NCBI RefSeq assembly: GCF_013167455.1
Contig: NZ_CP038328.1
Source: Escherichia coli O157:H7
GTDB taxonomy: Bacteria; Pseudomonadota; Gammaproteobacteria; Enterobacterales; Enterobacteriaceae
Reading direction: 5' to 3' (one strand)
Length of the DNA: 64,000 bases
In this document: positions 53,853 to 56,725 of the stretch, in pieces
How positions within the stretch are numbered: position 1 is the first letter of the stretch
How the letters are laid out: the number at the start of each line of letters is the position of its first letter
Notes under the pieces: generated by a model
The model's database searches: none
Told to the model about the DNA's origin: nothing
What the model saw: only the letters and a program-made list of their open reading frames with translations
Position numbers and translations under genes: made by a program

Positions 53853-55478
53853 TTACACACACACTCCCCCCGTCGCCCGCAGCAATAAATCATTCTGGAT
53901 CTGCTCTGACAACCGTACGCCGCCGCGCGTATCTAACATCACCTGACACCACGCCTGCGCCATTGGCGGAGAAGCATATTTCAACATTTGCGCACCGCAG
54001 CCCAGCAGGAATAGCTGATGAGTAATCTCTCGCCCCAGTTCTTCAGCTGGCTTACGCAGCTGCTGCTGTAAACGACGAACCGCGCAATCAAAATAGCGAT
54101 CCTGCCCTTTCACTTCTACAAATGCTTCCGACAATAAGTCGTATACGCCCGCTTGCTTATTGAGAACGCGCAGCACATCCAGGCACATAATATTGCCGGA
54201 ACCTTCCCAAATACTGTTTACCGGCATCTCCCGGTAAAGCCGCGGCAGCTCGCTCTCCTCGCAATAACCAATGCCGCCCAGCACCTCCATCGCTTCGGCC
54301 ACAAACGGCATACCTCGTTTGCAGATCACAAATTTTGCCGCAGGCGTAAATAAACGCGCCCACAGAGCTTCTTTGGCATCGGCGCGCCGGTCCCACGCTC
54401 GCGCAAGACGAAACAGCAACGCCGTTTGCCCTTCAAGCTGAAGTGCCATGCGACTTAAGACATGACGCATAAGGGGCTGTTGGATCAATGGATTACCAAA
54501 AACATGGCGTTGATGCGCATGATAAATCGCCAGCGAGAACGCACGGCGCATCATGGCATGGCTACCCAGGGCGCAATCAAAACGCGTCATCCCCCCCATT
54601 TTCAGGATCAGACGAATTCCTTCCCCTTCCTGCCCCAATAACCAGCCAATGGCATCCTGAAACTCCACTTCACAACTGGCGTTAGAGCGATTACCCAGCT
54701 TATCTTTCAGCCGCTCGAGGCGAATCGCGTTGCGTTGCCCGTCAGGCAAAAAGCGCGGCACAAAAAAGCAGGACAAACCGCCCGCGGTCTGCGCCAGCAC
54801 CAGATGCGCATCGCTTTGCGGAACTGAGAAAAACCATTTATGCCCCACCAGCCGATAAGAGCCATCCTCCAGACGCTCTGCGCGGGTGGTGTTGCTCATG
54901 ACATCGGAACCGCCCTGCTTTTCCGTCATTCCCATGCCAATCAACAAACCGCGTTTTTGCCCACCTGGCAATAAGTGAGAATCGTAGCGATCGCTCAACA
55001 GCGGTGTGGTCCAGTCCTGAAACGGCGCGGGTAACATCTGTAACAACAATGGCGTGGCGGCAAAGGTCATGGTTATCGGACATAACGACCCCGCCTCAAC
55101 CTGTGCGTGCAACATAAAACGCGCCGCGCGCGCCACAAATGCGCCGGAGCGAGCGTCTTCTTCCCAGGCAAGATTGTGCACCCGATTGGTACATAGTGCC
55201 TGCATCAGCAGGTGCCAGGCGGGGTGAAAACGCACATCGTCCAGACGGCGTCCTTGCGCATCGTAGCGCAACAGTTCAGGCGGATTCACATTCGCCAGCC
55301 GCCCCAGTTCAAGGGATTCAGCCGTTCCTAACTGCTGACCAATACTGGCTAGAAAATCGCTATCCCAGCCAGCACCTTCACGCGTTACCGCTTCGCAAAG
55401 CGCGCCATCAGACAGGTATAAGTTGCTGTTATTTAATGGTATAGGTTGATTAAAAACGGTGTGAGTTTGCCAGTGCAC
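53853..55478 (-). CDS. aidB: acyl-CoA-dehydrogenase-like adaptive-response protein AidB, 541 aa
   Basis: ORF-track 53853..55496; start set to the GTG giving (M)HWQTHTVFNQPIPLNNSNLY; acyl-CoA dehydrogenase fold. Confidence 0.92.
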   Translation of the reverse strand: MHWQTHTVFNQPIPLNNSNLYLSDGALCEAVTREGAGWDSDFLASIGQQLGTAESLELGRLANVNPPELLRYDAQGRRLDDVRFHPAWHLLMQALCTNRVHNLAWEEDARSGAFVARAARFMLHAQVEAGSLCPITMTFAATPLLLQMLPAPFQDWTTPLLSDRYDSHLLPGGQKRGLLIGMGMTEKQGGSDVMSNTTRAERLEDGSYRLVGHKWFFSVPQSDAHLVLAQTAGGLSCFFVPRFLPDGQRNAIRLERLKDKLGNRSNASCEVEFQDAIGWLLGQEGEGIRLILKMGGMTRFDCALGSHAMMRRAFSLAIYHAHQRHVFGNPLIQQPLMRHVLSRMALQLEGQTALLFRLARAWDRRADAKEALWARLFTPAAKFVICKRGMPFVAEAMEVLGGIGYCEESELPRLYREMPVNSIWEGSGNIMCLDVLRVLNKQAGVYDLLSEAFVEVKGQDRYFDCAVRRLQQQLRKPAEELGREITHQLFLLGCGAQMLKYASPPMAQAWCQVMLDTRGGVRLSEQIQNDLLLRATGGVCV

Positions 55479-55561
55479 TGTGTCTCCCTCCATCAATGGC
55501 AGTCACCATTAGTATGGTCACTGCCATGGATTCATGACAGAAAGAGATTGCTAAAACATTC

Positions 55562-56725
55562 TTATCCAGCAATGTAATGCGGAACGAAACGTGAGGTGTC
55601 TTTGGTGATCAGTGTGTTATCTTCACGGATCCCCATTCCGCACGCTTCATCATCGACAATCCAGCTACCGATGAGTGTGTAGCTATCGCCAAACCGCGGC
55701 AGAGGTTGAAACGCCTGGTAGATCATCGGTTCATCGGCGTAATCACCATCAGCGTGGTCAACGACGTTATTCTGGCCGTCGAAAATGGTGACATTTCCGC
55801 CTTCGCGCGAGTAGATCGGTTTACGCACATAGCTTTCGCCAGCGGCAATCTGCGGTTTTTCACCCTCAAACCAGGATGCAAGAAGGTTAGGATGACCAGG
55901 GAAGAAGCGCCAAAGCAGCGGCATTAGCCCTTTATTACTCAAGATACTTTTCCATAACGGCTCCACCCATTGCTCGCGACGCTTGCGCAGCAGCGGACCG
56001 TTATCGTCACGCATCATCCACTCCAGCGGATACAGCTTAAATGCACGCTGGATGACATTATCATCAAGATCGGTCAGTACGCCGCCGACGCCCAAACCGA
56101 GATCTTCAATGTAGATAAACCGCGACTCCTGCCCTGCCTGCTGGGCGCAGTCCTGCAAGTACAGCACGGTACTCCTGTCTTCATCGGTGTCCTGACAGCA
56201 GCAAAAATAAAACGGTTCCCGACTGTAAAGCTCGCTAAAGCGTGAAATCAGGCGTTCCTGAATAGCATTGTACTGATCGGCATCACGCGGAATAATGCCG
56301 CTGCGCCGGGCATCCTCCAGCCACAGCCACTGGAAATAAGCCGACTCGTACAATGAAGTTGGCGTATCGGCGTTGTACTCCAGCAGCTTCACCGGCGCAT
56401 TGCCACACCAGGCAAAATCCATCCGTCCATACAGCGAAGGATCGCGGGCGCGCCAGCTTTCAGCGATCACATCCCAGTACAACGGCGGGATCGCCAGTTG
56501 CGTCAGGATCTCTTCATCTTTTACCGCGCGATCCACCACCTCAAGGCACATCTGATGCAGTTCCGCAGTCGGTTTTTCGATCTGCTCTTCAATCTGGCGC
56601 AGAGTAAAACGGTAAGCCCGACTCTCATCCCAATAGATTTCATTGTCGATGATATGAAAGTCGAAACCGTTGTCAGCGGCGATCTGGTCCAGATCCCGTC
56701 GCACAGGAACGTTGTGTCTCAGCAT
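55562..56725 (-). CDS. yjfC: ATP-grasp protein YjfC (glutathionylspermidine-synthetase-like), 387 aa
   Basis: ORF-track 55562..56740 trimmed to MLRHNVPVRRDLDQIAADNGFDFHIID; 2 nt downstream of yjfM. Confidence 0.9.
   Translation of the reverse strand: MLRHNVPVRRDLDQIAADNGFDFHIIDNEIYWDESRAYRFTLRQIEEQIEKPTAELHQMCLEVVDRAVKDEEILTQLAIPPLYWDVIAESWRARDPSLYGRMDFAWCGNAPVKLLEYNADTPTSLYESAYFQWLWLEDARRSGIIPRDADQYNAIQERLISRFSELYSREPFYFCCCQDTDEDRSTVLYLQDCAQQAGQESRFIYIEDLGLGVGGVLTDLDDNVIQRAFKLYPLEWMMRDDNGPLLRKRREQWVEPLWKSILSNKGLMPLLWRFFPGHPNLLASWFEGEKPQIAAGESYVRKPIYSREGGNVTIFDGQNNVVDHADGDYADEPMIYQAFQPLPRFGDSYTLIGSWIVDDEACGMGIREDNTLITKDTSRFVPHYIAG

Follow-up and report, generated by a model that had tools for sequence, protein, structure and literature searches.

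What is the inverted repeat that lies just upstream of aidB in E. coli? To our knowledge, the control of aidB, a classic adaptive-response and sigma-S model promoter, has been described so far via proteins only (Ada, Lrp, sigma-S, and AidB), and a sequence-only reading of the region had proposed that the repeat could be a regulatory or autoregulatory site. The stretch of DNA that we analyzed (64,000 nucleotides, hereafter the window) is 100% identical to E. coli O157:H7, and E. coli K-12 MG1655 is identical to it across the 161 bp surrounding the repeat. Upstream of aidB and in the same direction lies yjfC; the intervening spacer is 83 bp long and, with the flanking codons, reads on the aidB strand TAA-G-AATGTTTTAGCAA-TCTCTTT-CTGTCA-TGA-ATCCATGGCAGTGAC-CATACT-AATGGTGACTGCCATTGAT-GGAGGGAG-ACACA-GTG. 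The features discussed below are collected in Table 1.

Table 1. Features of the yjfC-aidB spacer and its surroundings (window coordinates)
Feature	Position	Strand	Remarks
aidB coding sequence	53853-55478	-	GTG start at 55478; RefSeq annotation of identical or matching E. coli genomes agrees
aidB Shine-Dalgarno GGAGGGAG	55484-55491	-	paired within the predicted lower stem
Predicted 65-nt RNA hairpin of yjfC-to-aidB read-through transcripts	55483-55547	-	MFE between -35 and -43 kcal/mol, z about -5.8
Lower stem, 13 bp	55547-55535 with 55495-55483	-	UCUCUUUCUGUCA with UGAUGGAGGGAGA
Lower stem, 5' strand TCTCTTTCTGTCA	55535-55547	-	predicted anti-Shine-Dalgarno; overlaps the putative -35 CTGTCA
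Bulge, 7 nt	55534-55528	-	RNA fold
Upper stem	55527-55520 and 55518-55514 with 55509-55505 and 55503-55496	-	corresponds to the palindrome
Apical loop ACUA	55513-55510	-	RNA fold
Repeat as first described, 11-nt arms and 8-nt spacer	55497-55526		arms 55497-55507 and 55516-55526
Full DNA palindrome, 40 bp	55492-55531		arms 55492-55509 and 55514-55531, 18 nt, 16/18 complementary; 4-nt center
Approximate aidB transcription start	55504	-	placed 7 nt after -10; inside 3' arm of upper stem
aidB -10 hexamer CATACT	55511-55516	-	center of palindrome, hairpin apex
Putative -35 hexamer CTGTCA	55535-55540	-	placed by 18-bp spacing to -10
Ada box AATGTTTTAGCAA	55548-55560	-	fits AAT-N6-GCAA; about -56 to -44; upstream of -35, outside the repeat
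yjfC stop codon TAA	55562-55564	-	no terminator before aidB

The inverted repeat is part of a longer palindrome

The repeat exists: the plus strand carries TGGCAGTCACC-ATTAGTAT-GGTCACTGCCA, with 10 of 11 arm positions complementary. However, the coordinates first given for it (55507-55536) were shifted by +10, and its distance from the aidB GTG codon is 19 to 48 bp rather than approximately 30 to 60 bp. In the form first described, with 11-nt arms and one mismatch, the repeat is within chance: a shuffled window is expected to contain 0.65 such repeats (10/11) at the 8-nt spacing and about 13 at any spacing from 0 to 20 nt. The symmetry extends further, to the minus-strand palindrome ATCCATGGCAGTGACCAT-ACTA-ATGGTGACTGCCATTGAT, which is unique at such quality in the window, where dinucleotide shuffles expect 0.02. 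Of 5,426 complete E. coli genomes, 5,424 carry this palindrome exactly once, and even an E-value of 10 brings up only one place per genome; therefore, it is neither a REP/BIME element nor the end of an insertion sequence.

The half-site TGGCAGTSACC has eight matches in the window when the two arms are counted (1.5 expected, with no shuffle reaching eight). The other six are isolated one-mismatch copies, at window positions 1107, 4732, 11473, 21284, 28774, and 40814, none of them paired, and their excess is probably a codon-usage effect.

The palindrome is centered on the -10 element, downstream of the Ada box and the reported AidB target

The extended -10 element used by sigma-S has C at -13, C or T at -12, and then TAA-like bases. 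We assigned the aidB -10 hexamer to CATACT at 55516-55511 because CCATACT(T)A, a match to this pattern, has been conserved upstream of aidB from Yersinia to E. coli and because the sigma-S-dependent aidB -10 is reported to begin with C (-12C; PMC3141248). The motif (window 55517-55509, minus strand) hardly changes between Yersinia, Rahnella, or Pantoea and E. coli, with fully diverged flanks; one of its T residues is missing in E. coli K-12 and O157 and present in most genera and in E. albertii. Counted from the approximate start site, the palindrome would span about -27 to +13, its arms covering the -35/-10 spacer and about +1 to +13. A location within the transcribed leader, which together with a lack of protein binding had been named as an argument against a regulatory site, would thus hold for one half of the repeat, as only the downstream arm would be transcribed from aidB's own promoter.

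The repeat lies within the aidB control region and is probably regulatory, as had been proposed; the specific idea that Ada or AidB binds it is not supported. The Ada box consensus is AAT-N6-GCAA (PMC3788762). The aidB element that fits it lies upstream of the -35 region, and the repeat contains neither this consensus nor AAAGCGCA. AidB is reported to prefer UP-element DNA (PMC3546729), and that target is also upstream of the repeat. We rejected an Ada or AidB operator on this positional evidence and on the half-sites, which are not conserved in orthologues: the arms read TGGCAGTGACCAT (E. coli), TCAATGGCGCAGTCA (Salmonella), and GGCAGCGAC (C. sedlakii), with loops of 4 and 10 nt and differing bulges, whereas the operator of a dimeric protein would keep both half-site sequence and spacing in orthologous promoters. 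Inspected by eye, a sigma-54 -24/-12 reading of TGGCA was also rejected, as its spacing and -12 element do not fit.

Another element was seen 36 to 38 nt upstream of -10 in 35 of the 48 aidB promoter lineages described below (L001-L010, L088, and L092-L209): TTTTGTGA(C/T)C, followed 6 nt later by TCCCA-like bases (window equivalent 55551-55544). This is a CRP-like site (TGTGA-N6-TCNCA) centered near -41 to -42. The E. coli and E. albertii bases aligned to it are TTTTAGCAATC, the GCAA half of the Ada box; judging from this alignment, an older site may have given way to Ada control of aidB in the Escherichia lineage.

A hairpin is predicted for putative read-through transcripts from yjfC

A scan of 55350-55700 found no terminator-like site on either strand. 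An intrinsic terminator has a G+C-rich stem followed directly by a U-tract; here, the stem described below is followed by GAGACACAGUG, with no U-tract, and an intrinsic terminator was rejected. One E. coli Term-seq supplement (PMC7815308) has no entry for an RNA 3' end within the yjfC-aidB spacer and is silent on read-through. It does contain one RNA 3' end close to where aidB ends, on the antisense strand (MG1655 position 4415796, minus strand; approximately window 53950). No terminator separates the two genes; transcripts that run from yjfC across the spacer into aidB are putative.

A 106-nt sense-strand segment that begins at the yjfC end and reaches the aidB start folds at -42.9 kcal/mol with a z-score of -5.9 (RNAfold); none of 200 dinucleotide shuffles was as stable. 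In the 65-nt hairpin that dominates Table 1, the palindrome forms the upper stem, and the lower stem carries the putative -35 region on one strand and the whole Shine-Dalgarno sequence on the other. The helix is limited to the sense strand because four of the lower-stem pairs are G.U; for an 83-nt segment that starts 40 nt upstream of -10 and ends at the start codon, the MFE is -35.3 kcal/mol on the sense strand versus -25.3 kcal/mol on the antisense strand. A fold-back arrangement has an upstream segment complementary to the ribosome-binding region, and the 13-bp lower stem, which includes GGAGGGAG, is such a segment. The leader of the transcript from aidB's own promoter has no significant structure (z +0.97). 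In E. coli, the predicted cost of opening the region from the Shine-Dalgarno sequence to the start codon is 13.4 kcal/mol in the read-through RNA versus 3.1 kcal/mol in aidB's own mRNA, as computed in a local context beginning after the translated yjfC region; in a 260-nt context, such values are noisy, and the Salmonella result is contrary. The hairpin matched no Rfam family (best scores 11-15 bits against gathering thresholds of 40-53), and a known RNA family was rejected. A second predicted hairpin, with 9 bp (AUUGCUGGA-N9-UUUAGCAAU; 55573-55547, minus strand), spans the yjfC stop codon and the Ada box and may be a chance occurrence.

On the strength of these predictions and of the comparative evidence given below, the palindrome may well be the upper stem of an RNA hairpin around the aidB promoter, one that would keep the Shine-Dalgarno sequence of aidB masked in yjfC read-through transcripts; we hold this reading tentatively, at a little short of an even chance. 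Only sense transcripts that enter aidB from yjfC would be able to form the 65-nt hairpin. The promoter would lie inside it: the 5' strand of the lower stem would contain the -35 region, the apical loop would hold the -10 element, and transcription would start within the 3' arm. In the read-through RNA, UCUCUUUCUGUCA would pair with UGAUGGAGGGAGA and hide the Shine-Dalgarno sequence, while the palindrome would clamp the weak, G.U-rich lower helix shut. A transcript from aidB's own promoter, which depends on Ada and sigma-S, would lack the whole 5' half of the structure, so that its ribosome-binding site would be open. With read-through RNA masked and the own transcript open, AidB would be made only upon firing of its own promoter, and Rho would probably terminate the read-through RNA left untranslated.

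Hairpin strength follows the gene context of aidB

We collected 95 distinct aidB upstream regions by a genome scan, a metagenome pattern scan, and exact-protein look-ups. They fell into 48 clusters at 80% identity, 46 of which were used as lineages. In each, the pairing of the 40 nt upstream of -10 with the leader was compared with that of 300 dinucleotide shuffles of those 40 nt. The native sequence beats its shuffles at p<0.05 in 12 of the 46 lineages and at p<0.01 in 9 (Fisher 4.6e-8). The mean z-score is -4.0 in the nine lineages where the yjfC stop codon abuts aidB (six at p<0.05), -1.5 in the 11 with a T-run terminator upstream of aidB (one at p<0.05; for example, Citrobacter werkmanii, where the upstream gene is rlmB), and -0.7 in the 26 with all remaining contexts (five at p<0.05). 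The nine yjfC-adjacent lineages are E. coli, Salmonella, Phytobacter, and six metagenomic ones; the remaining-context group includes divergent neighbors, such as an MFS transporter gene in Enterobacter asburiae, together with a few terminator lineages missed by the T-run rule. The yjfC-adjacent lineages, which are interrelated and not fully independent, differ from the other two groups in both z-score (Mann-Whitney, 6e-5) and Shine-Dalgarno pairing (0.002). C. sedlakii, a yjfC-adjacent case added after the grouping, gave a z-score of -5.8, and S. enterica subsp. salamae gave -4.6. As for the loci themselves, yjfC adjoins aidB in C. sedlakii and Salmonella; rlmB and a terminator directly precede aidB in C. 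werkmanii and C. amalonaticus (L001, L212), and no yjf gene lies between in the two loci that were read.

In the yjfC-adjacent lineages, the Shine-Dalgarno sequence is paired to upstream sequence with a probability of 0.86, the sense strand is 4.5 kcal/mol more stable than the antisense strand, and the mean predicted opening cost is 15.1 kcal/mol in read-through RNA versus 4.6 kcal/mol in aidB's own mRNA. Many lineages in which aidB follows a terminator or has a divergent neighbor are predicted to mask the sequence as well (9-11.5 versus about 4 kcal/mol), and the contrast in masking between yjfC-adjacent and other contexts is modest (p = 0.009 to 0.018). Pyrimidine-rich tracts pair readily with the Shine-Dalgarno sequence GGAGGGAG. 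Salmonella enterica combines a strong hairpin with weak masking (8.2 versus 6.2 kcal/mol, reversed in the longer context).

The stems that surround the -10 element differ in sequence: GGCAGUGACCAU[ACUA]AUGGUGACUGCC in E. coli, UCAAUGGCGC-AGUCA[UGACCAUACU]UGACU-uca-GCGCCAUUGA in Salmonella, and UUCAA-GGC-GCGAC[CAUACUUAUU]GUCGC-GCC-UUGAA in C. sedlakii. Two metagenomic lineages (L112 and L134) and Phytobacter have long anti-Shine-Dalgarno stems (CUCCCUCCGUC/GACGGAGGGAG, CUCUCUCCAUC/GAUGGAGGGAG, and CUCCCUUCGUU/AACGGAGGGAG, respectively). In all of these, as well as in S. enterica subsp. salamae, the -10 element is always in or near the apex despite differing arms, loops, and bulges, and a total stability near -30 to -42 kcal/mol is found in yjfC-adjacent lineages only. 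The hairpin is thus kept while its arms, loop sizes, and bulges change; it therefore evolves in the manner of an RNA structure, unlike an operator.

RNAalifold on a MAFFT alignment recovered a core of only 6 bp, because the upper stems are out of register between genera; we therefore relied on the per-lineage shuffles and on a hand-set 18-pair lower stem on a 16-sequence alignment. In that alignment, the lower stem is paired in 82% of cells versus 36-55% for a slid partner, which none of 500 shuffles matched, and its covariation score was reached by 9 of 500 shuffles. Double-sided covariation is limited, amounting to five pairs and matched by 56 of 500 shuffles. Duplex energies within lineages differ from those across lineages (permutation p = 0.013). 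Just 5' of the Shine-Dalgarno sequence, a leader motif, GCCATTGA (window 55500-55493, minus strand; L088, L001, and L092-type loci), is conserved in Escherichia, Salmonella, Citrobacter, and Enterobacter, and it has a different upstream complement in each yjfC-adjacent lineage.

Taken one step further, these predictions would fit an insulator that evolved at aidB by placing the promoter inside a hairpin: transcripts of the yjf operon would be translationally silenced and own-promoter transcripts fully translatable, related genera would use a terminator or a divergent neighbor instead, and the stem sequence would turn over with its stability held. This broader proposal is possible, and we regard it with somewhat more reserve than the hairpin reading itself.

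Alternative explanations

The same hairpin could have another job, namely to mark or protect the yjf operon mRNA at its 3' end, whether by blocking exonucleases, by serving as a processing site, or by acting as a non-canonical stop, and it could overlap the promoter and the Shine-Dalgarno sequence only through the shortness of the 83-bp spacer. Several observations point this way: the hairpin is strongest exactly where yjfC lacks a terminator of its own, a canonical terminator occupies the same place where rlmB precedes aidB, and the Salmonella stem is strong yet masks the Shine-Dalgarno sequence poorly. However, the stem is not followed by a U-tract in the terminator scan, the Term-seq supplement has no 3' end in the spacer, and in most lineages the Shine-Dalgarno sequence lies within the base of the hairpin, which a 3'-end role does not need; we consider this explanation unlikely. 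We judge it equally unlikely that the palindrome has no function at all and arose by chance, or by template-switch "correction" of a quasi-palindrome after Escherichia-specific deletions that rebuilt the promoter, with the Shine-Dalgarno pairing following only from the richness of the promoter in pyrimidines and of the ribosome-binding site in purines. As calculated from the shuffles, chance would yield about one 16/18 palindrome per genome; relative to Citrobacter and Salmonella, Escherichia has indels exactly at the palindrome; upstream masking of the Shine-Dalgarno sequence is common in all contexts; and covariation is limited. Against an accidental origin stand the presence of at least three stems of different sequence that bracket the same -10 element in separate genera, the stability held in yjfC-adjacent lineages only, the sense-strand bias, and the Fisher-combined p over the 46 lineages.

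In a general form of the earlier sequence-only proposal, the palindrome would act in DNA as the operator of a dimeric repressor, known or unknown, that binds from -27 to +13 and blocks RNA polymerase at the aidB promoter. A 40-bp near-perfect palindrome centered on -10 is beyond chance in the window, of 11 variants read from E. coli and E. albertii, 9 keep the 11-nt arms intact (the other two have one 3'-arm change each), and the literature gives further, incompletely defined controls of aidB (Lrp, sigma-S, and AidB itself). This reading is nevertheless not supported, and we consider it improbable: Salmonella, C. sedlakii, and other orthologues are symmetric but differ in half-sites, spacing, and bulges; within Escherichia, the four outermost nucleotides of each arm vary with no compensating change; no second paired copy exists in the window and no other copy in the E. 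coli genomes; the extended structure is strand-specific; and the Ada box and the reported AidB target lie upstream. Far less probable still is a DNA cruciform that, under negative supercoiling, would expose or hide the -10 element and tune promoter use. The palindrome is indeed centered on -10, but its two mismatches and short arms make extrusion unlikely, and the conserved extension relies on G.U pairs, which are mismatches in DNA.

Relation to known systems and significance

Fold-back inhibition of externally initiated transposase transcripts was reportedly described by Davis, Simons, and Kleckner in 1985 and by Krebs and Reznikoff in 1986 for IS10 and IS50. The arrangement predicted for aidB resembles these elements in that an inverted repeat brackets the gene's own promoter, so that read-through RNA would carry both arms and hide the ribosome-binding site, whereas transcripts from the resident promoter would start inside the structure (for aidB, at the predicted start) and escape. 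Unlike these mobile elements, aidB is a chromosomal stress gene that follows an unrelated operon, and its translation effect is a prediction. The left end of IS200 combines a terminator against impinging transcription with a stem-loop in the 5' untranslated region that sequesters the Shine-Dalgarno sequence (PMC4513863). The aidB lineages show both of these alternatives, terminator or predicted Shine-Dalgarno-masking stem, against outside transcription; in IS200, however, the stem is in the element's own mRNA and represses constitutively, whereas aidB's own mRNA is predicted to be free.

Like REP/BIME and other mRNA-stabilizing intergenic stem-loops, the aidB palindrome is an imperfect palindrome of approximately 40 nt just after a stop codon, without a U-tract; unlike REP/BIME, it is single-copy, lacks the REP sequence, and encloses a promoter and a Shine-Dalgarno sequence. 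It shares with the LexA-, TetR-, and LacI-type operators that overlap -10 a dyad symmetry centered on the core promoter, but its half-site sequence and spacing are not conserved in orthologues, and no regulon copies were found in the window or in the E. coli genomes. The adaptive-response Ada box is found in this promoter too, as a separate element (55560-55548) outside the repeat.

If the masking hairpin operates as proposed, AidB output would be decoupled from yjf operon transcription at the RNA level, and aidB reporter fusions could differ with the amount of upstream DNA that they carry. The locus would then offer a clean natural example of a promoter inside a fold-back structure outside insertion sequences, with alternative solutions visible in sister genera. 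Should it be merely a 3' hairpin or a neutral palindrome, the finding would be an ordinary one.

Variation at individual loci

Sites that vary among E. coli and E. albertii sequences lie at the apex and in the 7-nt bulge, to which the outer 4 nt of the DNA palindrome also belong; one A-U pair is changed to G.U. In seven Enterobacter-type loci (L092, L123, L124, L143, L169, L174, and L199), the own-promoter leader can form a stem of its own, CCTTCA-N7-TGAAGG, overlapping the Shine-Dalgarno sequence. A double change that preserves the pair, CCTTT...AAAGG, is seen in two related sequences, while CCGTCA and TCGTCA in others break the pairing.

Two loci have changes in yjfC. In E. coli OkiPb01679 (L080), 13 bp comprising the last yjfC codons are deleted just upstream of the Ada box, and RefSeq annotates yjfC with a different end. 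In GCA_900450065.1 (L090), yjfC has decayed to a set of four or five short reading frames, and the aidB call is extended by 16 codons; in the same genome, a 1-nt deletion in the 3' arm of the palindrome changes GGTGACTGCC to GGTGATGCC, and the predicted hairpin is weakened to -29.6 kcal/mol.
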